DNA of 64,000 bases, taken from assembly GCA_041671225.1 (NCBI GenBank), contig JBAZBY010000001.1:827740-891739 (forward strand), in the 5' to 3' direction. Shown piece after piece: positions 5,353 through 61,585 of this stretch (the stretch's first letter is position 1; the number at the start of each line of letters is the position of its first letter). The position numbers and the translations under genes were made by a program. The notes under the pieces are model-generated. The model was given only the letters and a program-made list of their open reading frames with translations. It made no database searches and had not been told where the DNA came from. The DNA comes from Patescibacteria group bacterium (GTDB lineage: Bacteria > Patescibacteriota > Patescibacteriia > JBAZBY01).

Positions 5353-5355
5353 ACG

Positions 5356-6147: not shown

Positions 6148-6155
6148 GGACTCTC

Positions 6156-8847: not shown

Positions 8848-9980
8848 TGTGGCGGGAAATTCAGGGCATTGCAATGCTCTCAGGCACCATCCTCGGTGTC
8901 GGCATTTTTAGTCTTCCATACCTCCTCCATGCCGTGGGGCTTATTCCTATGTTCGGCCTTTTTGCCGTGCTTGCAGGCCTTATTCTTTTTTTGCAACGCG
9001 CCGTAGGGCATATGGTAGCAAATACCGAAGGGACGCATCTCATTCCGGGATATATTGGCAAGTTTCTCGGTTCAGGTGGAAAGTTTCTTTCGTTCTTCAC
9101 GTCGCTCTTTGGACTTCTTTTTGCAATGGTCGCGTATCTGATCGTGGGCGGCGTGTTTCTTGCGGATCTTTTTCAAAACTCAATCGAGATTTCACCAATA
9201 TGGTGGGCCGGCGTCATGTTCATCCTTGGTGGGTATTTTATCCTTCGTGGAGCGCGCACTGTTGCGCGCGTCGAACTCCTCTTCCTTGGACTTTTTCTTA
9301 TCCTTTTTCTTTTACTCGGTGCATTCGGTTTCTCCGCATTTGACGCTTCGCGTTTGCCAGCGACATTCGTTGATAATCCCTTCCTTGCCTTTGGCGGAAT
9401 TTTATTTGCAATGTGGGGTATGGCGGTGATTCCTGAACTCAAGCGTATTCTGGGGTCTGATGAAAAGCGCATCAAACGTGTCATCACCATCAGTTTTTTG
9501 CTCACGCTTTTCATGAGCATTTCATTTATGGTGCTTATCGCCGGCATCACGGGAACAGAAACAACAGATGACTCGCTCACCGGCTTGCAGGGGATTCTCG
9601 ATTCTAAGGTCATCTCTCTCGTGTTCATCTTTGGTTTTATTGCCGTATTCACATCATATATGAGTCTTGGCGTGACCCTGCGCGATGCAATGCATTATGA
9701 TTTTCATATTCCATGGTCAGCAAGCTTCCTTATTGCTGCGGTGCTGCCTTTCTTCCTCTACTTCCTCGGTATTACGTCACTCATTGGGGTTATTTCACTT
9801 TCCGGAATCATCTTCTTGGCAGCAGAGGGTGTTCTCTTAAGTCTTACATTGATTCGTTATTATGGTGAGCACCGCGGGAGGTTCATGCACTTCCAGCAGT
9901 TCCTTTTGGTTGTCATCATGGTGGCATTATTGATAGGCGCTTCACTCGCATTACGAGATTATATGAGTATGGACGTATGA
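8844..9980 (+). CDS. Polytopic membrane transporter (amino-acid-permease-like)
   Basis: About 11 predicted TM helices. N-terminal GTILGVGIFSLPY resembles the G-x-G-I-L-x-LP motif of the aromatic/AAAP amino-acid permease families. Family assignment tentative. Confidence 0.45.
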   Translation: MMWREIQGIAMLSGTILGVGIFSLPYLLHAVGLIPMFGLFAVLAGLILFLQRAVGHMVANTEGTHLIPGYIGKFLGSGGKFLSFFTSLFGLLFAMVAYLIVGGVFLADLFQNSIEISPIWWAGVMFILGGYFILRGARTVARVELLFLGLFLILFLLLGAFGFSAFDASRLPATFVDNPFLAFGGILFAMWGMAVIPELKRILGSDEKRIKRVITISFLLTLFMSISFMVLIAGITGTETTDDSLTGLQGILDSKVISLVFIFGFIAVFTSYMSLGVTLRDAMHYDFHIPWSASFLIAAVLPFFLYFLGITSLIGVISLSGIIFLAAEGVLLSLTLIRYYGEHRGRFMHFQQFLLVVIMVALLIGASLALRDYMSMDV

Positions 9981-11431
9981 AGAAATATCGGGTGCGCTTT
10001 GCACCATCACCGACCGGAGAGCTGCATGTTGGGAGCGCGCGTACGGCCCTTTATGATTATCTTCTTGCAAAACAAAGTGGAGGCGCCTTTGTTCTGCGCA
10101 TAGAAGATACAGACCAGCAGCGGTTGGTTGAGGGCGCACAAGAACGTATTTTTGAATCACTGCATTGGCTTGATATTGATCCTGATGAAGGGCCAGAACA
10201 AGGCGGTCCTTATGCTCCCTATGTGCAATCAGAACGTAAAAAGCACTACCAACAGGCAGCACAGGAACTCATTAATAAAGGCGCCGCGTACAAGTGTTTT
10301 TGCACCACGGAGCATTTGGAGCAGTTGCGCGCGGAACAACAAAAAGCAAAACAACCGCCGCGTTATGACAAACACTGTCTCGCGCTTTCTCCGGATGAGG
10401 CTGCAAAAAAACAGAGGGCTGGCGAGTCGTTTGTTGTACGGCTCAACGTGCCAGAAGAGGGGAGTACCTCCTTTGTCGATAAAATCCGTGATGTCGTGGA
10501 ATTTCAAAACAAGGAAATTGATGATTCTATACTGCTGAAGTCTGACGGGTTCCCCACCTATCATCTCGCTGTTGTGGTTGACGACCATGCAATGGAAATC
10601 AATCTTGTTGTGCGTGGCGAAGAATGGATCCCCTCAACGCCAAAACATTTATTACTCTATAAAGCATTCGGCTGGAAGCCGCCAGAATACGCGCATGTGC
10701 CGCAGCTTCTTGCAAAGGATAGATCAAAACTTTCAAAGCGGCATGGCGCCGTTTCAGTGCAGGAGTTTCAAAGGCAGGGTATTCTTCCCGAGGCGCTCGT
10801 GAACTACATGGCATTTCTTGGTTGGAACCCAGGAGACGAACGAGAAATTTTTTCTCTGGAGGAACTCGTGAAGGAATTTTCACTCGATCGCGTCATGAAA
10901 GGTGGTGCGATTTTTGATGAAGAAAAACTGCATTGGATAAATGGACTCTACATACGCAAACTCTCCAGTGAAGAACTTGCAACGCTTGTTATGCCATACC
11001 TCACTGAAGTCTTTAAGGCAGGGGATATAGCACGGTGTGATATGCAGAAGGCGGTTATTGCCGTACAAGATAGACTTGAAAAGCTTTCTGACGCCCCACA
11101 GCTCATGGATTTCTTTTTTGTCGCGCCACGGGATATCCCGCAAGATCTCCTTATTCATAAGAAACTCGATAGCACACAAGCAGAAAGCGGTCTTCGCTTT
11201 GCGCACAAGACACTCGCAGGACAAACGAGCGTTACGAATGCGGCAGCGCTTAAAGAAATATTCATGGGCGCCATAGAGACAGCAGGGCTCACTGTTATGC
11301 AGGTACTTTGGCCGATGCGCGTTGCGCTCACGGGCAAAAAGGCTTCACCAGATGTTTTTGATGTTACAGCAGCGCTTGGCAAAGAAGAAAGTCTGGCGCG
11401 CATCACAAATGCGCTTGGGCTATTGCCTTAA
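9977..11431 (+). CDS. gltX: Glutamyl-tRNA synthetase
   Basis: RFAPSPTGELHVGSARTALYDY (HIGH region) and KLSKR (KMSKS) motifs. Confidence 0.95.
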   Translation: MKKYRVRFAPSPTGELHVGSARTALYDYLLAKQSGGAFVLRIEDTDQQRLVEGAQERIFESLHWLDIDPDEGPEQGGPYAPYVQSERKKHYQQAAQELINKGAAYKCFCTTEHLEQLRAEQQKAKQPPRYDKHCLALSPDEAAKKQRAGESFVVRLNVPEEGSTSFVDKIRDVVEFQNKEIDDSILLKSDGFPTYHLAVVVDDHAMEINLVVRGEEWIPSTPKHLLLYKAFGWKPPEYAHVPQLLAKDRSKLSKRHGAVSVQEFQRQGILPEALVNYMAFLGWNPGDEREIFSLEELVKEFSLDRVMKGGAIFDEEKLHWINGLYIRKLSSEELATLVMPYLTEVFKAGDIARCDMQKAVIAVQDRLEKLSDAPQLMDFFFVAPRDIPQDLLIHKKLDSTQAESGLRFAHKTLAGQTSVTNAAALKEIFMGAIETAGLTVMQVLWPMRVALTGKKASPDVFDVTAALGKEESLARITNALGLLP

Positions 11432-11483
11432 TGTCAAAAACATGGTATATTACGTGACTGCGTGATATACTCTATACACAGGC

Positions 11484-12788
11484 ATGAAACAAAAGCAGTA
11501 CAATCACATATTCAAACACCCCAGGGATTGGGCGCATCTCATGCTTTATGCTGGAGTTGTTTTTGCCGTGCTTGGCGGAATAACGCTTGGATCATTCACC
11601 AATGGAGCCGCAGAAGCGCAGTCAGTGGCAGAAGGCCTCCAAGAGCTCAATCGAGAACTTGCTGATAAACGAAGCGAAATTCAGAGTATTGAGGATCAGC
11701 AGAAGGTATACAAAAAAACCGTTGAGGCAAAGCAAAACGAACAGCGAACATTGAATAATGAAATCGAAATTCTTGAGAGTGAGATTGCTTCAACCGAACT
11801 TGAGACGCAGCGCACAAAGCTGGAAATTGATTCCCTGAAGCTGGAAATTGAGAAGACGCAGGAAGAAATCCGCGGCCTTGCAGATGAGATTCTCACGAAT
11901 AAGGAACAGCTTTCTGAATTTGTGCAGCTCGCATACCGCAACTCACAAAAAACATATCTTGAAATAGCATTGCTGAACGATTCCTTCTCTGAATTTGTCC
12001 GTCAGGCAAAATACACTGAGAGTATTGAGGGACAAATGAAAAAGAGCCTTGATCGCTATAAAACCCTCAAGGGTGAGCAAGAAGCAAAGCAAGCAAGTCT
12101 TGAGGCAGGGAAGCAGGATTTGGAAGCACAGCAAAAGGCCCTTGCTGCCCAGCAAATTGCGCTGGATGAACAGTCTCAATATAAAGAAGCATTACTTGAT
12201 GAATCTCTTGTAACCGAAGAGAAGTATCAGGAACTCCTTAATCAGCTGCAAACAGAGCAGAACCGTGTTAACTCAGAGATATTCACCATTGAGAACCGAG
12301 TTCGTCAGCGCCTTGAAGAAGAAGGCGGCGACCCGCTTGAATCACTCGGTGAGCCAATTTTTGCATGGCCGGTTATGGCACTGCGTGGCATTTCAGCATA
12401 TTTCCATGACCCAAGTTATCCGTATCGCAGTATTTTCGAACATCCAGCCATTGATATCCCAGCGCCGCATGGCACAGCACTCAAAGCCGCGGCAGACGGC
12501 GTTGTTGCTATTGCACGCAATCTTGATTGGAAATCCATCAACGGTGTGAAGGTTTCCGCATACAACTACGTTACTATTCTTCACGGGGATGGTTTTTCTA
12601 CGGTCTATGGTCATATGAGTCGTATTGATGTTGCAGAAGGACAATACGTCACGCAAGGGCAGGTCATTGGTACAATAGGTGGAACACCAGGCACCGCAGG
12701 GGCAGGCACGCTCACAACAGGACCACATCTTCACTTTGAAGTGCGCATCAATGGATTTCCTGATGATCCGTTGAAGTACTTGCCATAA
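11484..12788 (+). CDS. M23-family metallopeptidase with N-terminal coiled coil (EnvC-like murein hydrolase/activator)
   Basis: N-terminal TM helix, about 250 aa of heptad-rich coiled coil, C-terminal M23 domain (HGTALKAAADGVV...GTGPHLHFEVRING). Confidence 0.85.
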   Translation: MKQKQYNHIFKHPRDWAHLMLYAGVVFAVLGGITLGSFTNGAAEAQSVAEGLQELNRELADKRSEIQSIEDQQKVYKKTVEAKQNEQRTLNNEIEILESEIASTELETQRTKLEIDSLKLEIEKTQEEIRGLADEILTNKEQLSEFVQLAYRNSQKTYLEIALLNDSFSEFVRQAKYTESIEGQMKKSLDRYKTLKGEQEAKQASLEAGKQDLEAQQKALAAQQIALDEQSQYKEALLDESLVTEEKYQELLNQLQTEQNRVNSEIFTIENRVRQRLEEEGGDPLESLGEPIFAWPVMALRGISAYFHDPSYPYRSIFEHPAIDIPAPHGTALKAAADGVVAIARNLDWKSINGVKVSAYNYVTILHGDGFSTVYGHMSRIDVAEGQYVTQGQVIGTIGGTPGTAGAGTLTTGPHLHFEVRINGFPDDPLKYLP

Positions 12789-44164: not shown

Positions 44165-44947
44165 TTAGGCTTTCTTTACTTCAGGGGCTTCGTCCGCAGC
44201 GATATCCGCAGAAACGTCAGAAGAAGCGGATTTTTTTTGTGTACTCTGCTTCTTTGGGCCTTTCTTCACAATCATGAAATGATCAACAAGCATACTCGAT
44301 GCCTCCTCCATTGCCTCTTTTGGTGAAAGAGAACCATCTGTGGTAACAGAAATGGTGAGACGATCAAAGTTTGTTATCTTGCCAACACGAACGTGCTCAA
44401 CGTCATAGTTAACGGTACGAATTGGTGTAAAAATTGAATCAATAGCAATGCGTCCGATCTCGTTTGATTCTTCATCATCCTCTTCGCGCGCCTCAACAGG
44501 AACATACCCGCGCCCCATACCAACCGTCACTTCCATAATGAATTCCTTTGCATCACTGGTCAGTGTCGCAATAGGCTGATCGGCATTCATAACCTCAACC
44601 TGCGAATTCTTCTCAAAATCCTTTGCTGTCACAATTTTTTTGCCCTTTGCTTTAAGCGTAAGGGTTGCACTATCCGTATCATTCAATTTGAGACGAACTG
44701 ACTTCAAGTTCAGAAGAATGTTGACCGCGTCTTCCTTCACGCCCTCTATGGCTGTGAATTCGTGATCAACACCTTCAATCTTCACTGAGGTGATTGCCGC
44801 ACCGGGCAATGAAGAAAGTAAAACGCGCCGAAGGGCATTGCCGATCGTAACCCCGTAACCAGGGTAGCATGGCTCGAGTACAAAAGTACCCTCGCTCTTG
44901 GTGCTCTTCTCTTCGATGAAATTTTGTGGGAGTGGGAATGAGTCCAT
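44165..44947 (-). CDS. rpoA: DNA-directed RNA polymerase alpha subunit, N-terminal domain only (no alpha-CTD)
   Basis: Alpha-NTD motifs (LEPCYPGYGVTIGNALRRVLLSSLPGAAI). The 260-aa protein ends in a K/S/A-rich tail and lacks the HhH alpha-CTD. Confidence 0.9.
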   Translation of the reverse strand: MDSFPLPQNFIEEKSTKSEGTFVLEPCYPGYGVTIGNALRRVLLSSLPGAAITSVKIEGVDHEFTAIEGVKEDAVNILLNLKSVRLKLNDTDSATLTLKAKGKKIVTAKDFEKNSQVEVMNADQPIATLTSDAKEFIMEVTVGMGRGYVPVEAREEDDEESNEIGRIAIDSIFTPIRTVNYDVEHVRVGKITNFDRLTISVTTDGSLSPKEAMEEASSMLVDHFMIVKKGPKKQSTQKKSASSDVSADIAADEAPEVKKA

Positions 44948-49981: not shown

Positions 49982-50092
49982 GCACGAGTGTACGAAGTAT
50001 GGAGCAGCGCGTCAACAGATACTCCCCCAACCCCGCAAAAATGAAGCATACCCCGCCAAAAAGCCACAGCGACTGCTGCGCGGTCAACGCTT

Positions 50093-51880
50093 CTAAAGAT
50101 GCGCAACCTCACCCGGATGCAGCATGTGCTCGGCCGGAGGGTGTTGCCTTGTATGATTCTTATTGCGTCGTGAGCGATTATTCCGATCCTCATTACGGCC
50201 ATCGCTTTGTTGGCGAATATTCTGCTGCTGTGGACGCTCTTGTGATTGCCGACCCTGTTGTTCATGCCCACGCTGCTGCGACGCTTGTTGATTTGGCTCT
50301 CGCCTCTTTTGGTCATGCCGCGGCGGCCTATTGCTGCCCTTGAATGAAACCGTGTGGGAACCCAGTGCATCCGCGAGACTCACTGCCGGACCAGTATCCA
50401 CCACTACGGGTTGCTCCTCATGCGCTCTCTGTGTGAAGTCCGGTTGTTCACGCTTCTCTTCTCTTTTTGGGCGGTCATTATGATTTGATCTGCTCGCGTT
50501 GCTTGACCAAGGGGTACGTTGCTGCTCACGGGGCCGCTCAGTACTGCGGTCACCGCCAGCAGTGACACCTTGTTCTTTCATCATCTCCTGCAATCCTGAC
50601 CAACGTATGATTTTATCTTCAACAACACTGCGTGGTTGTCCATAGCGTTCTCGAGAGACCTTAATCACCTTATCTGCATGTCCGGACTTGTTGTGCAGTG
50701 GTGGCAAGGTTAACGCAGAAAAAGGAGAAGATGAAACTCCATCGATCATCAACTTCAGATAAACATTATATTTGGTAAGGTTCACAAGATCATCTTCTGT
50801 AAACGTTGGAGTGAATTCCTTCACAAGTTCCTCGGCATCGTTCGCTCCAACACGAAACACCACCATAGAACCAACGTTACCGAATACTGCCGCTGAAACT
50901 GTTTCATCCAGCTGTTCAATATACTGATGCGCAATGATAAGATTCAAACGATACTTACGTGCTTCTGAGAGAATCGCAGCAAAGCTTTCTGTGGCAAAGT
51001 TCTGAAATTCATCAACATAAAGATAAAAATCTTTTCGCTCCTCTTCAGGAGTATCAATTCGACTCATGGCAGCGAGCTGCAATTTTGTGATAAGCATCGC
51101 ACCAAGCAATGATGAGTTATCCTCGCCAACACGCCCCTTTGAAAGGTTAATGAGAATGATCTTTCTATTGTCCATCGCCTCGCGTAAGTCAATAGAGCTC
51201 TTTGATTGCCCAACAATATTCCTAATAATTGCGGAGGAAAGAAATTGACCAACCTTATTCTGAATTGGGGAGATTGCTTCTGTTCGAAATTTATCTGAGT
51301 ATGCGGCATATTCATCCACCCAGAAAGACCTCACAATAGGATCGGAAATATGGGAGACAATTTTCTCGCGATACTTCTTGTCTACAAGCAAGCGAGTCAC
51401 ACCAAGAAGCGTGGAACCGGGATTTTCCAAGAGTGCAAGAATCGTATTGCGCAAAACATATTCGAGTCGTGGTCCCCAGGAGTCCACCCATATTTTCTTG
51501 AAGACGCCGATGAGTCCTGAAGCAATAAGATATCGATGTGTTTCATCAACTGCTTCAAGTACGTTAAACGCAAACGGATAATCAATATCTGCAGGGTTAA
51601 AGTAGACAACATCATTAATGCGATTTTGGGGAATGTAATTCAGTAAACGCTCAACAGTATCACCATGAGGATCAACAATAGCAATCCCTTCACCATTATG
51701 AATATCCTGCACCATCATATTCTCCAGCACAGTGGACTTACCCATACCCGTCTTCCCGATAAGGTACATATGACGGCGACGGTCATCACGTTTAATACCG
51801 AACAACCTCCACATATTGCGGAAGTTTGTTCGTCCAAAAGTGACGATAGAATCCTGTGCTGGTTCAAAATCTACTGCCAT
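50093..51880 (-). CDS. HerA/FtsK-superfamily P-loop ATPase (DUF87-like) with ~180-aa disordered Q/R/E-rich C-terminal tail
   Basis: Walker A (RRRHMYLIGKTGMGKST), then IAIVDPHGD as in HerA/DUF87. Walker B (FYLYVDEFQNF). ARKYRLNLIIAHQYIEQL resembles the R-K-x-G...ATQ motif of VirB4/TraG/HerA ATPases. No TM segments. Start at MAVDFEP (51880). Confidence 0.65.
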   Translation of the reverse strand: MAVDFEPAQDSIVTFGRTNFRNMWRLFGIKRDDRRRHMYLIGKTGMGKSTVLENMMVQDIHNGEGIAIVDPHGDTVERLLNYIPQNRINDVVYFNPADIDYPFAFNVLEAVDETHRYLIASGLIGVFKKIWVDSWGPRLEYVLRNTILALLENPGSTLLGVTRLLVDKKYREKIVSHISDPIVRSFWVDEYAAYSDKFRTEAISPIQNKVGQFLSSAIIRNIVGQSKSSIDLREAMDNRKIILINLSKGRVGEDNSSLLGAMLITKLQLAAMSRIDTPEEERKDFYLYVDEFQNFATESFAAILSEARKYRLNLIIAHQYIEQLDETVSAAVFGNVGSMVVFRVGANDAEELVKEFTPTFTEDDLVNLTKYNVYLKLMIDGVSSSPFSALTLPPLHNKSGHADKVIKVSRERYGQPRSVVEDKIIRWSGLQEMMKEQGVTAGGDRSTERPREQQRTPWSSNASRSNHNDRPKREEKREQPDFTQRAHEEQPVVVDTGPAVSLADALGSHTVSFKGSNRPPRHDQKRREPNQQASQQRGHEQQGRQSQERPQQQNIRQQSDGRNEDRNNRSRRNKNHTRQHPPAEHMLHPGEVAHL

Positions 51881-51881
51881 G

Positions 51882-53321
51882 TTATGCGATAGGGAGATTA
51901 TCTGGCGGTGCCGCCGATGTATCTTCTGAAGGAACGCTGTGCTCACTCGCGGCTGCCGCTCGTTCTTCAAGGGTTGCTGGAAGTACCGTACCTTCAAACT
52001 GCTCTTCTTCTGTTAGATCTTCTTCAACCGTTGGAAGTGAAACAGGCGGCTCTGATTTCTTTGCATCTGTCTTCTTCACGAGAGGCGCCTTCACGGTCAT
52101 TACTGGGAAATGAAATATACTTGCAAGCTCTTCTGTATTCAGCACAAAAGGATATGGACCTACATCCATATCACGATCACGATATGCACTGATGAGTTTA
52201 TTCTTCTTCACTGTTTTGCGCGCATCGGCGCGCCAATATTTCGCCGATGTCTTGGTCTTCTTATCAGTTTTAAAACCGTTGGACTCTAATGTATTGTACT
52301 GCAGCATGCCCCCAATAACGGTAGCAGGACGGTCATCTTGAAAAACCTTTTTTTTGGCAGCATACACAAGACGGATCTTTGTCTCATATGCATACTTGGA
52401 AAGCTTAATGCCAATCTGCTCAACGATACGCCGCTCATGCGGCGGAAGGTGTTGCATGAGGGATTCAGGTCCGCTATCTTTGCTTGAACTTGAATCCTGA
52501 TCAGGCGGAATAATGGATGCAATAAGCGTCTGCCATGTTCCAGAGGCTATATCCTGCCCGGCAGTCAGAATACCTCCACCACCGCTACTACTCTTTGCAC
52601 CGATGAGCTTCTTGATGGCGCGAAGGCCATTTTCGCGCCATGTTTCATCTTCTGGCGGACGGATGACAAACTGAAGCCAAAACTGCTCTCCCCGGCGAAG
52701 ACGAGAAAGAATTTCAAGCAATGAAGCGAGTGGATCTAAAAATGTCTGTGTCAATGTGTGTTCAAAGACAGGGTACGTCACAATAGGAAAGTACTCTTTG
52801 TTATCCAATTTTAATTCTGTTCCCCAGATATCCCATTCACGATCCGGAAAACGACGAGGGATATCATCAACATAATCCTCTACTTCGGTGATCTCCGCAT
52901 TCGGGTACTGCGCGTAAAAAACTGCCTCAACCATATCACGGAACTTACTCGGAACTCGAACAATGAACTGCACATAGCCGCCAAGACTCACTATCTCAAA
53001 TGAAAGCGGCTGCTGTGTGTATCCCTTCCACCAGCGATCAATAAGATCGCCATTCTTCTTGATGGTGGCGAGATGGTTAAAAATATGCTCCACGGCCTTG
53101 GGTGTCTGTTCATTATCCTTTGGAATATCAATGGCAAGGAGAACCCACTTAATGCTCTGTCGATATGTTTCCTGGCGGTTACGAACAAAAATCACAGCAG
53201 CGCCAACGGCAGCAAGAACGACAAAAAACGCCCAGCCTCCACGCGCAATGAGGAGCCAAGTGATCGAAAAGGGATTGAAGTCCCCTGTATTTAGAAATGT
53301 TGAGAGACCCCCGGTTTCCAT
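51882..53321 (-). CDS. Single-pass membrane protein of unknown function (partner of the HerA-like ATPase)
   Basis: N-terminal TM (WAFFVVLAAVGAAVIFV). About 430-aa soluble part with S/G-rich and K-rich low-complexity linkers and an acidic C-terminal tail. No recognised domain. One nucleotide separates it from the ATPase gene. Confidence 0.45.
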   Translation of the reverse strand: METGGLSTFLNTGDFNPFSITWLLIARGGWAFFVVLAAVGAAVIFVRNRQETYRQSIKWVLLAIDIPKDNEQTPKAVEHIFNHLATIKKNGDLIDRWWKGYTQQPLSFEIVSLGGYVQFIVRVPSKFRDMVEAVFYAQYPNAEITEVEDYVDDIPRRFPDREWDIWGTELKLDNKEYFPIVTYPVFEHTLTQTFLDPLASLLEILSRLRRGEQFWLQFVIRPPEDETWRENGLRAIKKLIGAKSSSGGGGILTAGQDIASGTWQTLIASIIPPDQDSSSSKDSGPESLMQHLPPHERRIVEQIGIKLSKYAYETKIRLVYAAKKKVFQDDRPATVIGGMLQYNTLESNGFKTDKKTKTSAKYWRADARKTVKKNKLISAYRDRDMDVGPYPFVLNTEELASIFHFPVMTVKAPLVKKTDAKKSEPPVSLPTVEEDLTEEEQFEGTVLPATLEERAAAASEHSVPSEDTSAAPPDNLPIA

Positions 53322-53329
53322 GAGGATAT

Positions 53330-54460
53330 TTATGTTGGTGTTTCGTTTTGACTAACGGCAACAATATAGGTGCCATTAGCAGTTTTTTCAAAATGCTTTT
53401 TATTGGTCAACGCAAGATGTACGGTATTTTTTTTCACCATCCGTTGCTCCATGACCTTTTTAACGATTTCATCACGCGTGAGGCCCTCATCAGTCTCACG
53501 CAAAATCTCCTTAATAACATCAAGCACAACGCCTGGCTTGTAGCCCCACTCCTTAAGCCCATAAATACCACGACCGACCAAAACATAGCGGTCGTTAAGA
53601 ATGAGTTCATTATGCACTGTTGGTGGGTATGCCTTACGCTTATCAAACTGCGCCTCATTAATGCGACGCGTGATATCTGTAAAGTGCAACGGCTCGCCGT
53701 GCTTCTTTAAAATGAGGAAGATTTTATCGTTCATGCGACGTGGTTTTACAGATCCCCACTCCGCAAGTCCATACTCATTAAACGGATTACTTGCAACCTT
53801 TTTGCTCAATACCAAATAACTCCGAACAACTTCTGGGGCAAGACGATCACGATGCTCTTGATGAAATGGCCTCTCAGTAAAACTTTTATGAATAACATCA
53901 AATTCTTTTGGTGCGCCGTGCTCTTGAATGGTTTTATAAATCTCATCCATTACTTGATGCACAAAATCCAAAGAAATATCGGAAAGCTTCCAAGAACGAC
54001 GGAGTACCTCAGATTCTGGAACAGCATGAAATTGATCCTTCAAGAGTTCACCCATGAAGAAACGAATAACATTACGCTGCGCTGCATTTTCACCAAGGTA
54101 TGCCAAAAGTGAATCATGCATATGATCCTCTTCCATAATGCCCCCATGCTCTGCAAGGAGGCCTGTGAGCGTCTTTTCAATAGGACGGGCGTGCGTATCA
54201 AACTCACTTGACTCGCGCATCTTCGCGATGGCCGCATTCTCGATCTGGCGAATGCGTTCTCGCGTAACATCATACGAGGTGCCAATTTCCTCTAGTGTTT
54301 CCTTTTTTCCACCCTGAAGACCATAACGCCGTGCAAGGACATCTTCTTCTTTTTTACCAAGTACCTTAAGCAAAAGCTGCAAGGATTCCTGCGGATTAAA
54401 CTGCTCCAGCTTACTGGTTTGGCTCCGATCAAGGATGCGATCAAGGATTGAATCTTCCAT
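53330..54460 (-). CDS. Sigma-70 region-4 HTH protein fused to tandem HARE-HTH-like winged-helix repeats (putative transcription factor)
   Basis: Residues about 35-85 (LARRYGLQGGKKETLEEIGTSYDVTRERIRQIENAAIAKMR) are a textbook sigma-70 region 4.2; no region 2 is present. The C-terminal ~290 aa has at least three repeats ending in the HARE-HTH signature (FNEYGLAEWGS; YVLVGRGIYGLKEWGY; a third, degenerate copy). Confidence 0.6.
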   Translation of the reverse strand: MEDSILDRILDRSQTSKLEQFNPQESLQLLLKVLGKKEEDVLARRYGLQGGKKETLEEIGTSYDVTRERIRQIENAAIAKMRESSEFDTHARPIEKTLTGLLAEHGGIMEEDHMHDSLLAYLGENAAQRNVIRFFMGELLKDQFHAVPESEVLRRSWKLSDISLDFVHQVMDEIYKTIQEHGAPKEFDVIHKSFTERPFHQEHRDRLAPEVVRSYLVLSKKVASNPFNEYGLAEWGSVKPRRMNDKIFLILKKHGEPLHFTDITRRINEAQFDKRKAYPPTVHNELILNDRYVLVGRGIYGLKEWGYKPGVVLDVIKEILRETDEGLTRDEIVKKVMEQRMVKKNTVHLALTNKKHFEKTANGTYIVAVSQNETPT

Positions 54461-54503: not shown

Positions 54504-54532
54504 AATATAACATAAGTAAAAAAATCTGTCAA
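54504..54532 (-). promoter_or_regulatory. Sigma-70-type promoter for the three-gene operon (53330-54460, 51882-53321, 50093-51880)
   Basis: Minus strand: TTGACA-17nt-TATATT within the 170-nt AT-rich gap after secF. A second weaker TTGACT box lies upstream. Confidence 0.5.
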
Positions 54533-54631
54533 CCCTGTGATACCATTTATATTAAAATCAGTCAAGTTCCTTCGAAAAAACTAAAAAAATTGCCCAGTAA
54601 ACCGAGCCTACTACACTACTTTAGTTTCTCC

Positions 54632-55528
54632 TTATGCTGTCCCTTTTCTACGCGCCCAAATTACAAGTAACGGCCCCGCAATGTAAATAGATGAATATGT
54701 ACCAACGGCAATACCAATACCTAAAACGAGAACAAAATATCGAATACTTTCCCCCCCAAAAAGAAACAACGCACCCAAAACAAGTAAGGCTGTTAGTGAA
54801 GTATTGATGGATCGGATAAGTGTTTCATTTAATGAAATATTCATAACTGAAGAGAATGTTTCATTTCCATACTTTCGAAGATTTTCACGAACACGATCAT
54901 AAACAACAATAGTGTCATGCACTGAAAATCCTAAGATTGTCAAAAGTGCAGTGATAAATAATGTATCCGCCTCTAACCCTATATATGCACCGAGTACCGC
55001 ATACAATCCAAGTGGTATGAGAATATCATGTATAAGCGCGATAATCGCACCAACACCATAAAACCACGCAGGTACCGGTCCAGCAGATACTTTTCGAAAT
55101 GCCCACGTTATATAAAGGATAATACCCGTAAGCACTGCACCAATTGCAATGAGAGCTTTTTTCTGCAATTCACCTCCAATTGTTGATCCAATCGAAGAAA
55201 AACTTTTTTCATCAATTTGACCATATGATTCGCGTAGTGATTCAATCAGTATTTCCTTTTCATTATTTGAGAGTGATGTCAACCGAATGAAAACATCATT
55301 ATCACCAGAAGGTTGCACGCGTACCTCAGTAATATCTTGCGCTATAATTACCTGTTCAAGAATTCCCACATCAGGTCGCTCATCTAAAAAACGTATGTGT
55401 AATAGACTTCCCCCCGTAAAATCAATACCCGGGGTAATGCCCCAAATGATCAATGCGAGGATTGCGAGAAGTACAAGGCTCGCTGAGAATCCAAGAGTAA
55501 ATTTTTGCCAACGAATAAAATCAATCAT
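54632..55528 (-). CDS. secF: Protein translocase subunit SecF
   Basis: GIDFTGGSLL and SecF TM topology. Confidence 0.9.
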   Translation of the reverse strand: MIDFIRWQKFTLGFSASLVLLAILALIIWGITPGIDFTGGSLLHIRFLDERPDVGILEQVIIAQDITEVRVQPSGDNDVFIRLTSLSNNEKEILIESLRESYGQIDEKSFSSIGSTIGGELQKKALIAIGAVLTGIILYITWAFRKVSAGPVPAWFYGVGAIIALIHDILIPLGLYAVLGAYIGLEADTLFITALLTILGFSVHDTIVVYDRVRENLRKYGNETFSSVMNISLNETLIRSINTSLTALLVLGALFLFGGESIRYFVLVLGIGIAVGTYSSIYIAGPLLVIWARRKGTA

Positions 55529-57195
55529 TGTGTTTTCTCTGTATCTTTAACTCCAAGTAACCAGCGCGCGGCTCGCGAATCACTGGTTAAAACAAAACGC
55601 ATAAAGGTTCTCGTGACCGTAATTGCTGAAAACATACTCACAAAAATACCGATGGAAAGCGTTATCGCAAATCCCTTAATGAGTGATGTACCAAACCAAA
55701 TAAGTATCAGTGTCGTGATCAGACTAGAAATATTTGAATCACGGATGGATGTCCACGCGCGACGAAAGCCCTCTTCAATGGCAAAGGACACCTCCTGCCC
55801 GCCACGAAGTTCTTCTTTGAGTCGTTCAAAAATAAGAATATTCGCATCAACCGCAATACCAATGGAAAAAATAAAACCAGCAACCCCAGCAAGTGTGAGA
55901 GTTACTGAAAAAAGCTTAAAAATTGCAAATGTTACGAGGGTATAAATAGTAAGTGCAAAAACAGAAAGGAGGCCAGGCAAACGGTAAAAAAGGATCATAA
56001 AAATAATAACCGCAAGGAGCCCAATCACCCCAGCGATAATGCTTTTTTGGACACTTTCCGTCCCTAAACTCGCACCAACATTCTGTTGCGTAATGAGTGA
56101 AACGGGCACTGGCAACGCACCAGCATTTAATCGTTGCGCAAGGTCTTTTGCTTCCTGAAGCGTAAATGTTCCCGTAATGGTCGCGACACCATCCGGAATG
56201 ACCGCTTGCACAACCGGAGTGCTAATGGGAGCATCATCAAGAAAAATACCCACAGGTTGGTTAAGATTACGCTCAGTAATCTCCCCAAAAAGAACCTTGC
56301 CTTCATCATTGAATGTCAACTGAACGGCTGGAGCGCCTGTTTGTTGATCAAAAATAACATCTGCCCGCTGGAGCTGCTTGCCAGAAAGCGCTGTGCGCAC
56401 AAAATTGCTTTGAGTATTCTCAACTTCCTGTGTCGCGACGCGCTTAATGATATGAAAACCGAATTGTGTTTCAACGAGTTCAGGGAATACCCCGCCGTCT
56501 GACAACTTATCAAATAAAACATCATCAAACTCGGTGACAAAAGATCCGCGCGGGGCAAAGCCCAGATCCCCGCCTGCGTTTGTGCCATCTGGCAGCTGAT
56601 TCCCTGGATCATCGGTAAACTCATTCGCAAGCGCAGAAAAATCCTCCCCTGCTACTGCTCGATCAAGCACGCTACGTGCCTCTGCGCGGATTGCATCGCT
56701 ATCTACCGCCGCTCCGTCTGTGGGCTGGGTTGAAAAAAGAATATGTTGTCCTTGAACCTCTTCATGTGTTCCAGCTTCTTCACTGAGCTGCAACTCGCGA
56801 AAATCAAGCGTTGGCGTCTCACCGATCAATGCAATAGCCTCAGAAATATCTGTGATACCCGCAAGGTCAGCAATCACGCGATAGTCATCACCCACGACCT
56901 GTGTTTGCACAATAGGCTCAGCAACTCCAAGACTATTCACGCGACGCTCAATAACATCTCGCACGCCTTCAAGGGCATTCGTATGTTCATCGGATGGAAT
57001 ATCCTGCATGTTTGCTGAATAGACAAGATGCGTTCCGCCTTGCAAATCTAAGCCAAGGCGCAGCGGCACCTTGAAGGACCAGTTACCAATGCGAACCTCA
57101 TTGCGCCGGGGATCCGCTATAAAGCCGGAAACCACCGCCAGCACGAGAATGCCGATAATAAGGAGAAATACCCGTTTACGGTTTTGCATAAACAT
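55525..57195 (-). CDS. secD: Protein translocase subunit SecD
   Basis: GLDLQGGTHLVY and the SecD periplasmic and TM regions. Confidence 0.9.
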   Translation of the reverse strand: MFMQNRKRVFLLIIGILVLAVVSGFIADPRRNEVRIGNWSFKVPLRLGLDLQGGTHLVYSANMQDIPSDEHTNALEGVRDVIERRVNSLGVAEPIVQTQVVGDDYRVIADLAGITDISEAIALIGETPTLDFRELQLSEEAGTHEEVQGQHILFSTQPTDGAAVDSDAIRAEARSVLDRAVAGEDFSALANEFTDDPGNQLPDGTNAGGDLGFAPRGSFVTEFDDVLFDKLSDGGVFPELVETQFGFHIIKRVATQEVENTQSNFVRTALSGKQLQRADVIFDQQTGAPAVQLTFNDEGKVLFGEITERNLNQPVGIFLDDAPISTPVVQAVIPDGVATITGTFTLQEAKDLAQRLNAGALPVPVSLITQQNVGASLGTESVQKSIIAGVIGLLAVIIFMILFYRLPGLLSVFALTIYTLVTFAIFKLFSVTLTLAGVAGFIFSIGIAVDANILIFERLKEELRGGQEVSFAIEEGFRRAWTSIRDSNISSLITTLILIWFGTSLIKGFAITLSIGIFVSMFSAITVTRTFMRFVLTSDSRAARWLLGVKDTEKTQ

Positions 57196-57240: not shown

Positions 57241-58668
57241 TTAATCCTGCACCCTTACTGGAGTGCCAATCTCTGCCCAGTTATAGATCCACTCGGCATT
57301 ATCATAATGGATGTTGATACATCCATGCGACATTTTATGGCCAAAATTGTTGTGCCAATATGCGCCATGCAAAAGCCGCGGCCCATCAAAACGAAGATTC
57401 CACTTTGTTCCTGGGAGGTCAAAGTTGCTGGGATTACCTGGACCAAAATATCCAAAGTAATGCTTCACTGGAATTTTTTGTGAAATTGCAAAATCTCCTC
57501 GTGGCGTTTCAGAGGCGCCGGGCAACCCCGAGGAAATAAGAAACGTATTTACTTGCTGACCATTTTCATACGCATAGAGGCGCTGCTCACTAATGTCAAC
57601 AACTATACGCTGACCCTGCTCACCAAATGTTGCGCGTGTTGCGGGACCTGTAATAATATGCGGGCTTTCTTTGTCCACTGAAGCGGCAACATAGATGCCG
57701 CCACGAAAATCGAGTTCATAGGCAAAAGTCCATGCCGGCTTTGGTGTGCCATCTGCGGTGAAGGTACGAACCTGAGGGCCGCCACCCGCACCTGCACCAG
57801 TGATGATCTCTGCTTTCCCATCAGTATTGATGTCTACAGCCGCAAGACTTGCGCCACCTTTAAATGAAGATGGATAGGCATAAAATTCAGAATAAATAGG
57901 TCGATCAACATGATAACCATACACTTTTACAATGGCGGGACCGCCACTCAGAATTGTTGTGATCACTTCTGATTTTCCGTCATTATTTGTGTCAGCTGCC
58001 GCAACAGCAACTCCGCCGCGATCCCATGATGCATATGGAAAGTAATCAAGCCCCAGCCATGTCCCATCCCCATCAAAGACACGAACATGCGGCGAGCCGC
58101 CAGGACCAGAGCCGGTAACAATCTCATCACGATGATCTCCGTCAACGTCCCCAGCGGCAACTAATACATCACCAGTAAAAACACCGTCATAGGGATAAAA
58201 ATTTTCAAGTAGTACGCCGTGCATCGTAAATACTTTCACCTCTGAACCATCAGCGGATGCGGCGCCAGTAATAATTTCATCTTTTCCATCACCATTGATA
58301 TCCCCTGTGGCAATATAAAGACCTTTGCGAAAACTTTCATCATAAACAAAGAAGGAGCTCAAACGCTCCCCATCCTGTGCAAGTATCCGCACATGTGGCC
58401 CACCGCCTGGGCCGGCTGCAACAACAAGTTCATCAACGCCATCACCATTCACGTCACCCAATGCCGTGCGCACGCCCCCGGCAAAACCATCATCAAATAC
58501 GGAAAATGTTTTCGGCTTCTCAAGGCGTGAAATAATTTTTGCAGTATAAAGGTGCGCCTCGGGCGCGCGCGTGTCCGCTGCGTAAACGGCATTGGCAGAC
58601 AAAAACAACCCAATAAGAATTGAGATGGGCAGTGCAAAGCCAAGATACCGGAGCACTATCTGTGCCAT
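57241..58668 (-). CDS. FG-GAP/VCBS-repeat beta-propeller fused to a C-terminal L,D-transpeptidase (YkuD) domain, secreted
   Basis: Signal peptide (MAQIVLRYLGFALPISILIGLFLSANAVYA). Five or six FG-GAP repeats (GDVNGDGVDELVVAAGPGGGPHVRI, etc.). C-terminal YkuD catalytic motif (HGAYWHNNFGHKMSHGCINI). Start placed at Met 58668; the ORF-track start at 58875 would overlap secA and looks non-coding. Confidence 0.75.
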   Translation of the reverse strand: MAQIVLRYLGFALPISILIGLFLSANAVYAADTRAPEAHLYTAKIISRLEKPKTFSVFDDGFAGGVRTALGDVNGDGVDELVVAAGPGGGPHVRILAQDGERLSSFFVYDESFRKGLYIATGDINGDGKDEIITGAASADGSEVKVFTMHGVLLENFYPYDGVFTGDVLVAAGDVDGDHRDEIVTGSGPGGSPHVRVFDGDGTWLGLDYFPYASWDRGGVAVAAADTNNDGKSEVITTILSGGPAIVKVYGYHVDRPIYSEFYAYPSSFKGGASLAAVDINTDGKAEIITGAGAGGGPQVRTFTADGTPKPAWTFAYELDFRGGIYVAASVDKESPHIITGPATRATFGEQGQRIVVDISEQRLYAYENGQQVNTFLISSGLPGASETPRGDFAISQKIPVKHYFGYFGPGNPSNFDLPGTKWNLRFDGPRLLHGAYWHNNFGHKMSHGCINIHYDNAEWIYNWAEIGTPVRVQD

Positions 58669-58693
58669 GTATTTTTCTTTTTGTATGAAAACG

Positions 58694-58783
58694 CCCGGTT
58701 GTCCGGGGATAGAGAGGTGAGGGTTGGAAATCAGTATCGCTGCCCGTTGTAGTGTCAGGAAGCCATATTGATTCCCAACCCTC
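58694..58783 (-). promoter_or_regulatory. Structured leader/terminator region between secA and the L,D-transpeptidase gene
   Basis: Imperfect 15-bp inverted repeat (58719-58733 and 58769-58783, one mismatch) around a 35-nt loop. Adjacent CCCCGGacaaCCGGG hairpin plus a short U-run just upstream of the start codon. Confidence 0.35.
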
Positions 58784-58858
58784 GAAAGACTCTTTTGCTT
58801 TTTATTTTTGTTTGAAAAGAGCTTACAGCAGTAAGGATAGCAGAAAAATAGCCTCTTG

Positions 58859-61585
58859 TCAACGTTTTGCTGCACTCAGCTGCTGATGTTCCTCGCTATT
58901 GATCAACCCGCACTTTTTGTACTTCTTGCCCGACCCGCATGGACACAAATCATTACGCCCGATTTTTTCTGCCGTTACAGACTGAGCTGCTTGCGGTGCA
59001 GATGTTGAAACAGTGCTTGCACTGCCCATGATCTGCTGTGGCGATGTCAAATCCGATGATGACTTTGCTGCACCAAGTTCTATGGTCTGACGACCCGCAA
59101 GTGGTGAATGTTCAACGTGTTGTGCAATCACTACTTTGTAAACAGATGTCGCTGTTTGTGATTGGAAGCTATTCAAGAATTGTGTGTAGAGCGTATGCGC
59201 TTCACGTTTATACTCTATAAGCGGATCCTTCTGACCATAACCCCGCAATCCAATCCCCTGCCGAAGATAATCCATCTGTTCCAGATGTTCGATCCACAGT
59301 GTATCCAACGTGCGAAGCAAAACGCCGCGAAGAATTTGTTCGAGCCGCTCTGGATTTTCAAAACTCGCAGTGAGCTCGGCATAACGGTCTTCAGCAAGCT
59401 TGATAAGATACTCAGTAAGCTTTGTGCGGCGTTCAACAAGGCTCGCCTTCTTCCTTTCTTCACCAAGAACATCATCCATCATTAACCGCTCCTGCAACGA
59501 AACGGGAAAGATCGTATCAACAACTTCATACACCTCTTCTATATTCCACTCTTGAGGATTCTCACTGCTCGTGTGAAAAGAAATGACTGACTCAATTTCT
59601 TGTTCAAGAATCGCTTGTATGCGGTCATGAAGTGCCTCACCTTTTTGCTCGAGCAATTCGCGACGTAAACGATAAATGGCCTCCCGATGCTTGTTCATCA
59701 CGTCGTCATACTCAACAAGGTGTTTGCGAATATCAAAGTTGTTTCCTTCTACTTTCTTCTGCGCCTGTTCTATTGAACGGGTGATGAAGCGATTCTCTAT
59801 TGGCATATCTTCTGGCATACCAAGGCGATTCATCATGCTCTTCATGCGCTCGTTCGCAAAGATGCGCATAAGATCATCTTCAAGAGAAAGATAAAATTGT
59901 GAAGATCCGGGATCACCCTGACGTCCGGCGCGGCCGCGCAGCTGATTATCTATACGACGGCTTTCATGGCGTTCAGTACCAATCACATGCAAACCACCCA
60001 ATTCCACTACTTCTTTCTGCGCCTCTTTGTTCAATGGAACACCTCCAAGAATAATGTCCACGCCGCGACCAGCCATATTGGTTGCAACGGTTACGCCACC
60101 CTTTTTTCCTGCCTGCTCAATAATGTGCGCTTCACGCTCATGATTCTTTGCATTGAGCACTTCATGAGGAATCCCCTCCTCGGTGAGTAGCTGACTCAGT
60201 ACTTCATTCTTTTTGATTGAAACCGTACCAACAAGAACTGGCTGTCCTAATTCATGTCGCTTGCGAATTTCCTTTGCAACAGCAATATACTTGCCGCGCT
60301 CTGATTTATAGATTCGATCAGTTCTATCATCACGCTGCAGCGGCTTATTTGATGGAATAATAGAAACGTCAAGTCCATAAATCTTAAAGAACTCCTCAGC
60401 CTCCGTTGCTGCGGTACCCGTCATTCCAGCAAGTTTTGGATACATCCGGAACAAATTCTGGATACTAATGGTCGCGAGTGTCTGGGATTCCTGCTTAATA
60501 TCAAGCTGCTCCTTTGCCTCAATTGCCTGATGAAGCCCTTCAGAAAACCGACGGCCTTCCATCATGCGACCGGTGAATTCATCCACAATAATCACTTCCC
60601 CATTTTTGACGACGTATTCGCGATCTTTCTTGTAGAGAACTTCTGCGCGCAAAGCCTGCTCAAGGTGATGCACCATCTCAATGCCACCAGCAACATAAAT
60701 ATTCTCAACCCCAAGCGCCTTCTCCATTTTTGCAATACCTTGCTCGGTGAGCGATGCAGCGCGCATTTTTTCGTCAATATTGAAATCCGGCCCTTCCTCA
60801 AGCCGCGTGACAAGCTGCGCATATTTACGGTAAAGGTCCGTTGCCTGCTGCGCTGGCGCAGAAATAATAAGTGGCGTGCGAGCCTCATCAATAAGAATAC
60901 TGTCTACTTCATCGATAATGGCAAAGTTAAGGTCCTGCTGAACGCGGAGTGCCATCTCTGGCGCCATATTGTCGCGAAGATAATCAAAACCAAATTCTGA
61001 ATTCGTGCCATACACAATATCTGCTTGATATGCCGCTTGTCGCGTTACAGGCTTCAAGTGCTGCATTGGACCCTCTTCACTCACCCCCGCATCAAACTGA
61101 TACGCCTGCTCGTGTTGCAAACATGAAACGGTCAGGCCAAGCGCGTCATATACCTGCCCCATCCATTGCACATCGCGTTTTGCAAGGTAATCATTGACCG
61201 TCACAAGGTGCACTCCTTTTTTAGAAAGCGCATTTAATGCCAATGCCAATGTTGCGACAAGTGTTTTTCCTTCACCTGTCTTCATTTCAGCAATCTTACC
61301 CTGATGAAGAACAACGCCACCCATCAGCTGCACATCAAAGTGCCGCATGTTCAGTACGCGCCTTGCTGTTTCGCGCACCATGGCAAAAACTTCCACAAGG
61401 TGGTCATCAAGCGTTGCCTCCTCCTTCTGTATCGCAACGCGCATTTCAGCAATGCGTTTCTTGATTTCCTCTTCTGAGCGCTTTGCTATTTCTTTTTCGC
61501 GTGCGTTGATCTGCTCAACGTATGGCTCCAACTTCTGGACAGCCCGTTCATTCGGGTCCCCAAAAAGCGAACTGAAAATACTCAT
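58859..61585 (-). CDS. secA: Preprotein translocase ATPase SecA
   Basis: DEAD motor motifs and C-terminal zinc finger CPCGSGKKYKKC. Confidence 0.95.
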   Translation of the reverse strand: MSIFSSLFGDPNERAVQKLEPYVEQINAREKEIAKRSEEEIKKRIAEMRVAIQKEEATLDDHLVEVFAMVRETARRVLNMRHFDVQLMGGVVLHQGKIAEMKTGEGKTLVATLALALNALSKKGVHLVTVNDYLAKRDVQWMGQVYDALGLTVSCLQHEQAYQFDAGVSEEGPMQHLKPVTRQAAYQADIVYGTNSEFGFDYLRDNMAPEMALRVQQDLNFAIIDEVDSILIDEARTPLIISAPAQQATDLYRKYAQLVTRLEEGPDFNIDEKMRAASLTEQGIAKMEKALGVENIYVAGGIEMVHHLEQALRAEVLYKKDREYVVKNGEVIIVDEFTGRMMEGRRFSEGLHQAIEAKEQLDIKQESQTLATISIQNLFRMYPKLAGMTGTAATEAEEFFKIYGLDVSIIPSNKPLQRDDRTDRIYKSERGKYIAVAKEIRKRHELGQPVLVGTVSIKKNEVLSQLLTEEGIPHEVLNAKNHEREAHIIEQAGKKGGVTVATNMAGRGVDIILGGVPLNKEAQKEVVELGGLHVIGTERHESRRIDNQLRGRAGRQGDPGSSQFYLSLEDDLMRIFANERMKSMMNRLGMPEDMPIENRFITRSIEQAQKKVEGNNFDIRKHLVEYDDVMNKHREAIYRLRRELLEQKGEALHDRIQAILEQEIESVISFHTSSENPQEWNIEEVYEVVDTIFPVSLQERLMMDDVLGEERKKASLVERRTKLTEYLIKLAEDRYAELTASFENPERLEQILRGVLLRTLDTLWIEHLEQMDYLRQGIGLRGYGQKDPLIEYKREAHTLYTQFLNSFQSQTATSVYKVVIAQHVEHSPLAGRQTIELGAAKSSSDLTSPQQIMGSASTVSTSAPQAAQSVTAEKIGRNDLCPCGSGKKYKKCGLINSEEHQQLSAAKR

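Follow-up and report, generated by a model that had tools for sequence, protein, structure and literature searches.

The stretch of DNA analysed here (hereafter, the window) is 64,000 nucleotides long and belongs to a Patescibacteria group bacterium (contig JBAZBY010000001.1, positions 827,740 to 891,739 of the forward strand). Its minus strand harbors a three-gene operon, whose first gene encodes a protein of 376 amino acids (aa) in which a sigma-70 region 4 (sigma4) is followed by four winged helices (wH1 to wH4); this gene is referred to as sigma4-wH. The two genes located downstream encode a DUF8128 membrane protein and a P-loop ATPase resembling TrwB and the type IV coupling proteins (T4CPs), which together represent a split, membrane-anchored ATPase of the VirB4/T4CP type. 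The open reading frame (ORF) of the first gene, with an ATG start, has exactly the boundaries assigned to it in a preliminary description of this DNA, made from the sequence alone. The three genes and the segments of the first one are the following:

53330–54460, minus strand: sigma4-wH gene (sigma4 plus four winged helices), 376 aa
54395–54460, minus strand: linker segment, aa 1–22, aligning to the C-terminal half of sigma region 3.2 and carrying the SILD motif
54203–54394, minus strand: sigma-70 region 4 (4.1 and 4.2) helix-turn-helix (HTH), aa 23–86
53975–54202, minus strand: wH1, aa 87–162; divergent, acidic, poorly conserved; H-b-H-H-b-b (helix, H; strand, b), with a predicted local distance difference test score (pLDDT) above 88
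53741–53974, minus strand: wH2, aa 163–240; HARE-type, terminating in FNEYGLAEWG; near-neutral to acidic, variable
53531–53740, minus strand: wH3, aa 241–310; bona fide HARE-HTH, basic; PTVHNELILN...LVGRGIYGLKEWGY
53333–53530, minus strand: wH4, aa 311–376; HARE-type, basic, followed by a short variable tail
51882–53321, minus strand: DUF8128 membrane protein, 479 aa, starting 8 nt past the stop of the sigma4-wH gene
50093–51880, minus strand: T4CP/TrwB-like P-loop ATPase, 595 aa (ATG at 51880), starting 1 nt past the DUF8128 stop

The N-terminal part of the protein was assigned by profile searches. The Pfam model Sigma70_r4 (PF04545) matched aa 30–83 with an E-value of 3.6e-13 and 49.3 bits (cut-off 24.1), while no match to Sigma70_r2 (PF04542) or Sigma70_r3 was found in the 376-aa protein at E ≤ 1. 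In the NCBIfam collection, RpoD, RpoS, RpoH, SigK, and other sigma models matched aa 3–88 only (aa 3–84 in the case of RpoS), and did so via their C-terminal ends, with 40–64 bits against cut-offs of 240–800; the RpoD models gave the best scores. The preliminary description had placed a sigma-70 region 4 at the N-terminus and had found region 2 absent, and both statements were borne out by the Pfam and NCBIfam searches. The possibility that the whole protein is an ordinary full-length sigma factor can be ruled out, since regions 2 and 3 are absent and the sigma models, matching through their C-terminal ends, cover no more than aa 3–88. The family profile, compared with solved structures, matched only chains of sigma region 4.

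A BLASTP alignment with the C-terminus of the E. coli sigma70 factor covered aa 1–85, with 40% identity and an E-value of 5e-16 (the residue numbering depends on the reference sequence used). Since this alignment begins at the "IEDTT" of sigma70, the protein starts midway through region 3.2, with the latter half of it, and continues with complete regions 4.1 and 4.2. The identity of its sigma4 to primary sigma factors amounts to 40–48%. The residues contacting the -35 element are kept (K37, E38, R45, T55, L56, T66, R67, E68, R69, R71, and Q72), and are those which we take to correspond to R554, E555, R562, T572, L573, T583, R584, E585, R586, R588, and Q589 of E. coli sigma70, positions whose role in sigma–promoter contacts is well established. 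Across the representatives of the family, no variation is seen at L56, E68, R69, R71, and Q72, and hardly any at T66 and R67, the TRERxRQ motif being conserved as a whole. The linker behaves differently at different distances: in 20 sequences of close relatives, S4, I5, and L6 of the SILD motif are invariant and D7 is nearly so (≥90%), whereas the motif is not conserved across the wider family. The likeness to domain 4 of primary sigma factors (sigmaA/sigma70) resides in the -35-contact residues; unlike those factors, the 376-aa protein is devoid of regions 1.1 to 3.1, and therefore of -10 recognition and of the main core-binding surface, and its region 4 is N-terminal, with four winged helices after it.

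An intact region 4 with its DNA-contact residues and no region 2 is what might be expected if the protein were one subunit of a split sigma factor, contributing region 4 in trans to a partner that supplies region 2, as in the SigO-RsoA pair of B. subtilis. However, genes for RpoD, for a protein consisting of region 2 only, for an alpha C-terminal domain, and for a delta subunit were sought across the window and ~1.08 Mb of sequence fetched from related loci, and sigma4-wH alone was found. Moreover, the ~290 aa of winged helices have no match in known split sigma factors, and the operon partners are secretion-type proteins rather than sigma fragments, making this explanation highly improbable.

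As for the remaining part of the protein, the preliminary description had proposed at least three repeats of the HARE-HTH type. The HARE-HTH model (PF05066) scored 41.3 bits on the whole protein, in two stretches (gathering score 25.9), so that both hidden Markov models suggested there, PF04545 and PF05066, are above their cut-offs. Domain by domain, PF05066 passes on wH3 (aa 241–310, 27.0 bits) and remains under the cut-off on wH4 (21.2 bits), while wH1 and wH2, each scanned alone, gave no Pfam match. In profile–profile comparison, P was 92% (E 7e-7) between wH2 and wH3, and 93.5% (E 2e-7) between wH2 and wH4; wH1 was only weakly related to wH2 (E 3e-3) and is a distant relative at best. On these sequence comparisons, wH2, wH3, and wH4 can be regarded as homologous HARE-type repeats. 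The signature from which the repeats had been counted, [FYL]xx[FYLV]G[LI][AK]EWG, occurs in its strict form just once (aa 227–236), and the looser GLxEWG twice (231–236 and 301–306). Thus, three repeats are supported by profile–profile comparison and by the fold, but not by the strict motif.

The structure predicted with AlphaFold from 20 homologues (pLDDT 81; predicted template modelling score, pTM, 0.66) places the sigma4 helices at aa 23–83 and, after them, four H-b-H-H-b-b winged helices at aa 87–160 (wH1), 164–232 (wH2), 243–306 (wH3), and 312–367 (wH4), in agreement with the winged-helix fold that had been anticipated for the C-terminal part; the pLDDT is low in the segment of aa 1–22 and in wH3 at 281–299. 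The domains differ in mean charge and in conservation, which over 72 family representatives are +3.8 and 0.53 for sigma4, -3.0 and 0.32 for wH1, -1.9 and 0.36 for wH2, +4.4 and 0.69 for wH3, and +4.2 and 0.53 for wH4. The most conserved block of the protein is wH3, with many invariant columns. The overall architecture, as read from the sequences, would be that of two conserved, basic, nucleic-acid-binding ends separated by ~150 variable, acidic residues.

The HARE-HTH of wH3 is also the feature that recalls the N-terminal domain of the delta subunit (RpoE) of the Firmicutes RNA polymerase, a comparison already drawn in the preliminary description, and delta is found among the structural neighbours. 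This resemblance is limited to one winged helix: the delta-subunit model TIGR04567, aligned with wH3 over 63 residues, scored 36 bits, under its equivalog cut-off of 42. Firmicutes delta consists of one N-terminal HARE-HTH with a long acidic C-terminal tail; here, the HARE domains occupy the C-terminal half, the protein stops 6–20 residues past wH4 with no acidic tract, three to four winged helices are arranged in tandem and fused to a sigma4, and both the phylum and the genomic context are different. Membership of the delta family can be ruled out on account of the sub-cut-off score, the absence of the acidic tail, and the presence of several winged helices.

A sequence identical to that of the 376-aa protein (P0001) is present in NCBI, where its contig, from Patescibacteria, measures 1.03 Mb. 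Among more than 4,600 scored homologues, the top 120 are 365–429 aa long (all but two, 365–391 aa) and have the same pair of Pfam domains, the HARE-HTH entry being absent in three; those that bear a name are called "sigma factor-like helix-turn-helix DNA-binding protein", "hypothetical protein", and, once, "delta subunit". The winged-helix part alone (aa 88–376) was searched against 1.84 billion cluster representatives (clusters at 50% identity). The number of clusters retrieved was 469 at E ≤ 1e-30, and rose to 813 and 1,410 when the threshold was relaxed to 1e-10 and 1e-3, respectively. The majority of these representatives are 340–410 aa long, with a match beginning near residue 80–110, and, among those sampled, Sigma70_r4 was detected in 72/72 and HARE-HTH in 71/72. 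The named sources are Patescibacteria (Kerfeldbacteria, Komeilibacteria, Nomurabacteria, and "Patescibacteria group"). No curated model spanning the whole protein was found in the Pfam and NCBIfam scans. The idea that this combination is not a standard family holds, therefore, only as far as curated models are concerned, as the protein belongs to a large and uniform Patescibacteria family, already labelled in generic terms by NCBI.

Some members of the family, or their records, are peculiar. Two longer proteins were retrieved, P0242 (552 aa) and P0261 (659 aa); one of them carries a C-terminal DnaA domain IV (Bac_DnaA_C, E 1e-22) past wH4, and the other is fused to SecF at its N-terminus. Both fusions could be either real or artefacts of gene calling; the one with the DnaA-box-binding domain hints at sequence-specific DNA reading near origins. 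Many records of metagenome-assembled genomes (MAGs) labelled "uncultured Gammaproteobacteria bacterium" (binchicken, SRP co-assemblies; L006, L009–L011, L018, and others) bear the Patescibacteria-type gene block, with ~50% identity, and their label is evidently a placeholder or an error. Lastly, two separate contigs of the same MAG, SO_2017_LW4_136 (L012 and L020), each contain a secF/sigma4-wH/DUF8128 block, both with 50% identity to the 376-aa protein of the window, which points to either a duplication or a mixed bin.

The organization of the genes surrounding sigma4-wH was compared in 85 loci (L001–L085), of which L001 is the genome of the window itself and the other 84 encode relatives with 44–53% identity. 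Wherever the contig reaches far enough, the order secD-secF-sigma4-wH-DUF8128-ATPase is found on one strand, while the outer genes vary. In four out of four remote relatives (~32–35% identity), the sigma4-wH/DUF8128/ATPase core is still kept and the flanking genes differ: two of them have no same-strand secDF upstream, and in a further case (L092) the contig stops just upstream of the sigma4-wH gene. Since the remote relatives maintain the three genes while their flanks differ, the triplet is the invariant unit, and the adjacency to secDF is restricted to the closer clade. The synteny survey proposed in the preliminary description thus revealed an essentially universal linkage with the downstream membrane protein and ATPase, kept in all of the 89 related loci from other genomes whose flank is long enough.

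The ATPase has no transmembrane segment, and its C-terminal tail is of low complexity and charged. Its Pfam matches are TrwB_AAD_bind (E 1.1e-12), DUF87, T4SS-DNA_transf, and TraG-D_C, those to DUF87/HerA being weaker; in NCBIfam, it matches TraD and VirD4-like models and, weakly, CedD and CedB. It is the best conserved of the three proteins, with 53–74% identity (57–74% in all but three of the loci from other genomes). The AlphaFold model of the DUF8128 protein (pLDDT 75) comprises alpha/beta domains preceded by a long membrane helix at the N-terminus, and the top 11 matches obtained with this model in Foldseek are all TrwK/VirB4 chains. As the protein is devoid of a P-loop, it would be, to judge from the model, the counterpart of the non-ATPase N-terminal part of VirB4. 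In the remote relative L090, DUF8128 and the TrwB-like ATPase are fused, in that order, into one polypeptide of 864 aa; because of this fusion, the two genes can be considered one functional unit. The membrane protein and ATPase noted in the preliminary description are both present, then, but the ATPase, called HerA-like there, is better described as T4CP/TrwB-like, and the membrane protein resembles the N-terminal domain of VirB4.

Two further arrangements of these genes were observed. The locus L090 contains two paralogous DUF8128+TrwB-like fusions (4812–7325 and 9521–12115; 837 and 864 aa), which flank a single sigma4-wH gene, and L091 contains an additional TrwB-like ATPase without DUF8128, ~5 kb away.

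With its TrwB/VirD4-type matches, the ATPase located 3' of sigma4-wH belongs to the same class as the orphan VirD4-like T4CPs of Patescibacteria. According to a survey published in 2025, 5,713 VirD4-like T4CP homologues occur in 2,918 Patescibacteria genomes, only 148 of them near virB4; the VirD4-like gene is non-essential in Southlakia, a possible exaptation is raised by the authors, and the role of most of these proteins is left open (PMC12102498). A term search of the same paper found neither "sigma" nor "helix-turn-helix" (PMC12102498), and a full-text literature search returned no paper containing "DUF8128".

The control region of the operon lies between secF and the sigma4-wH gene, and the signals detected there and at the other end of the operon are listed below:

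54504–54532, minus strand: promoter of the three-gene operon, with TTGACA (54532–54527), a 17-nt spacer, TATATT (54509–54504), and a TG upstream of the -10
54592–54607, minus strand: terminator-like hairpin and T-run just past secF, GCTCGG-TTTA-CTGGGC then AATTTTTTTA; consensus scan only
50065–50080, minus strand: terminator-like hairpin past the ATPase gene, possible 3' end of the operon; consensus scan only, weak

The hairpin past secF, as called by the consensus scan only, marks the upstream boundary of the operon. The promoter is of the extended -10 type and matches the consensus at 11/12 positions. An equivalent 11/12 promoter, likewise of the extended -10 type and with a spacer of 17 nt, was found in 65/83 related loci, 55–130 nt 5' of the start codon, while shuffled controls reached 10/12 at most, and this in 1/83. 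The gene does, therefore, head its own operon under a consensus-like promoter, as had been described. The pattern TTGACA-N14-TGNTANNNT has two occurrences in the window, against 0.05 expected. The other strong promoter of this kind (TTGACA-N14-TG, extended -10) is located at 58834–58862 on the minus strand, in the last stretch of secA, ahead of the ykuD-secDF operon.

Being the first gene of an operon with a perfectly conserved TTGACA, and encoding a sigma4 that keeps its DNA-contact residues, sigma4-wH might act as an operon-specific transcription factor or autoregulator, with sigma4 on its own -35 and the winged helices on nearby DNA or on RNA polymerase, controlling the DUF8128-ATPase genes; conserved autoregulators encoded by the first gene of an operon, such as hrcA, are well known. 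A second forward TTGAC, 33–40 or 49–52 nt from the main -35, is present in the intergenic regions of 18/71 related loci, and also points in this direction; in the window it is a TTGACT, 33 nt upstream of the main -35 (region 54533–54570, minus strand). The excess is nevertheless mild (~19 extra elements observed versus a total of ~11 TTGAC expected per shuffle), and tandem promoters may account for it. Further, in the promoter regions of the related loci, an alignment anchored on the -35 disclosed no conserved operator and no conserved position beyond the -35 and the extended -10, although an invariant target is to be expected from the nearly invariant recognition helix of wH3; the combination of TTGACA and an extended -10 also heads the neighbouring ykuD-secDF operon, leaving no specificity to the element; and a five-domain protein of 376 aa, expressed from a near-consensus promoter, would be atypical of a local repressor. 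For the "dedicated promoter-specific regulator" of the preliminary description, no conserved operator beyond the -35 and -10 came to light, and a local regulator of this kind, although possible, seems rather unlikely.

The explanation that we tentatively prefer, while granting it somewhat less than an even chance, is that the 376-aa protein is a cytoplasmic multi-HTH subunit of the DUF8128-ATPase machine, serving as its DNA-recognition or adaptor component. According to this proposal, the sigma4 domain, which keeps the -35-reading residues of primary sigma factors, would bind TTGACA-like DNA; the basic and nearly invariant wH3-wH4 pair might bind a second DNA site or the ATPase; the acidic and variable wH1-wH2 pair would be a spacer; and the protein would deliver double-stranded DNA to the membrane ATPase for DNA uptake, transfer, or segregation. 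That it binds DNA, that it associates physically with the ATPase, and in which direction and in what form translocation would proceed are all elements that we infer. An adaptor is preferred to a local regulator because the triplet persists while its neighbours change, and because no conserved operator was found in spite of the nearly invariant wH3 recognition helix. The short intergenic gaps of the window (8 nt and 1 nt) were also counted in favor of the adaptor, together with the retained sigma4 contacts, the basic and conserved character of sigma4, wH3, and wH4, and the conserved promoter of the operon, and so were two published observations, the orphan T4CPs of Patescibacteria and the sigma-related HTH domains fused to ATPases in DndH variants. 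The constant pairing with a split VirB4/T4CP-like ATPase speaks for a DNA-binding partner of this machine no less strongly than for a regulator.

Established systems offer a working analogy. The gamma domain of FtsK (at KOPS sites) and the C-terminal winged helix of Streptomyces TraB (at clt repeats) load their motor at specific DNA sites, and in conjugation TraM couples oriT DNA to the coupling protein TraD. In all of them, HTH or winged-helix modules hand DNA to a membrane-associated hexameric P-loop motor, and the DNA reader considered here shares an operon with a motor of the same ATPase superfamily. It differs from them in that no sequence homology was detected, in that the reader is a separate polypeptide containing a sigma4, and in that its DNA binding, its interaction with the motor, and the translocation are predictions.

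Several observations weigh against this proposal. A mirror-tree analysis of the three proteins, for which SecD and SecF served as controls, disclosed no specific co-evolution: shared phylogeny dominated the signal, sigma4-wH and the ATPase had a partial correlation of 0.16, and sigma4-wH correlated best with SecD (0.785). The gap between sigma4-wH and DUF8128 is looser and more variable (14–383 nt) than that between DUF8128 and the ATPase. First-gene regulators can likewise remain linked to their operon over long evolutionary distances, and no conserved DNA target was identified in the promoter regions compared. Finally, the likeness to primary sigma factors, the remnant of region 3.2, and the delta-like wH3 fit binding to RNA polymerase at least as well.

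These last features are the core of a further explanation, which regards the protein as a general RNA-polymerase-associated factor of Patescibacteria, modulating initiation or recycling genome-wide. Its sigma4 and linker would sit on the beta flap/RNA exit channel or on the -35, and its delta-like HARE domain on beta-prime, as in Firmicutes delta; in addition, it might compensate for the absence of the alpha C-terminal domain in the clade. The rpoA gene of the window (44165–44947, minus strand) encodes an alpha subunit of 260 aa with RNA_pol_A_bac and RNA_pol_L and no C-terminal domain, ending in a short, low-complexity, lysine-rich tail. Among its 119 closest database relatives, 99 (232–292 aa) are without PF03118 and 20 (309–361 aa), e.g., that of Doudnabacteria, keep it, so that the loss of this domain looks, from the sequences, like a trait of the clade; a literature search returned no paper on such a loss in the clade. 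The sigma4-wH module was not found within 10 kb on either side of rpoA in three genomes, two with and one without the alpha C-terminal domain. The truncated alpha of the window and of the 99 relatives speaks for the RNA polymerase factor, and so do the kinship of its sigma4 with primary sigma factors (RpoD models best, 40–48% identity), the start of the sigma alignment inside region 3.2, the wide distribution of the family in the clade with a uniform architecture, and the strong promoter. On the other hand, the constant co-location with a VirB4-like ATPase pair remains unexplained, the TIGR04567 score is under the cut-off and the acidic tail is absent, the N-terminal linker motif is not kept in the wider family, and, on the beta flap, a free sigma4 would be a competitor of sigmaA. 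On balance, a general factor of this type is unlikely.

It is also conceivable, but quite improbable, that the protein bridges the two worlds, i.e., the transcription machinery or promoter DNA and the membrane motor of the VirB4/T4CP type, with sigma4 and linker on the beta flap or the -35, a delta-like HARE domain on RNA polymerase, and the rest on the ATPase. If this were true, the family would represent a lineage-specific accessory subunit of the Patescibacteria RNA polymerase, arisen where alpha lost its C-terminal domain, and transcription, or promoter-marked DNA, would be coupled to the translocation of DNA or protein at the membrane.

Proteins sharing the sigma4, and in part HARE-like C-terminal winged helices, with the 376-aa protein are also known from defence loci, namely MzaA, a plasmid-borne "RpoD", and a DndH variant. 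The MzaA model (NF041931) scored 64 bits against a cut-off of 800, aa 18–88 matching model positions 638–708 only, and the PADLOC match to MzaA covers the same sigma4 region only; membership of this family is excluded by such a partial, sub-cut-off match. The "RpoD" of an Abditibacteriota plasmid (L086; AP024153.1, 26–5931) is a protein of 568 aa with sigma region 4 at aa 227–274 and no other sigma region, whose C-terminus is similar to wH3-wH4 (27% identity, E 2e-8); downstream of it come an Eco57I/MmeI-like methylase (1,119 aa) and a DUF4007 protein, and this plasmid locus looks like a BREX- or Dnd-like defence locus. In DndH variants, sigma-related HTH domains are fused to HerA/FtsK ATPases (PMC10853773). 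These proteins adjoin methylases and nucleases on mobile or defence islands, whereas the Patescibacteria family is chromosomal and uniform, and resides in a housekeeping context (secDF, secA, mnmA, alaS, and ribosomal protein genes). A protein of a defence island or mobile element was rejected in view of the lack of phage matches, the different architecture and methylase neighbourhood of the only plasmid match, the housekeeping neighbours, and the restriction of the PADLOC matches to the sigma4 and P-loop parts.

Some features of the flanking genes can be added. The gene preceding secDF (57241–58875, minus strand) encodes FG-GAP and YkuD (L,D-transpeptidase) domains; its longest ORF, of 544 aa with a GTG start, overextends the gene call in L001, which is of 475 aa. 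The SecD protein of the window (55525–57195, minus strand) contains an inserted PpiC/Rotamase (peptidyl-prolyl isomerase) domain, also found in L002–L005 and absent from the SecD of L090 and L091. Rfam and tRNA scans of the window were empty.

The combination of sigma4 and HARE domains is, in itself, probably not new, as the abstract of Aravind and Iyer (2012) on HARE-HTH reportedly mentions bacterial proteins that unite features of the alpha subunit and of sigma factors with HARE-HTH. No paper joining Patescibacteria with HARE-HTH was retrieved by a literature search, and what appears to be undescribed in the searchable literature is the uniform Patescibacteria family and its invariant coupling to a split VirB4-like ATPase. 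The 376-aa protein represents a clean natural case in which a region 4 has been put to use outside a sigma factor with its -35-reading residues intact.

The ultra-small Patescibacteria account for a large share of bacterial diversity; they are mostly uncultured, and it is their genes that tell of their biology. In at least one large lineage of their coupling-protein ATPases, DUF8128 and the ATPase are the N- and C-terminal halves, respectively, of a split VirB4-like protein, and the sigma4-wH gene invariably precedes the pair. Three "hypothetical" gene families become, in this way, a single testable module, for which a DNA substrate and a recognition subunit are nominated. No new fold or chemistry is involved; the module, abundant and conserved over great distances in a major radiation of bacteria, offers a first handle on the function of the orphan coupling-protein ATPases of Patescibacteria, and raises the question of whether it might be a machine that takes up, transfers, or segregates DNA in organisms relying on scavenged nucleic acids.

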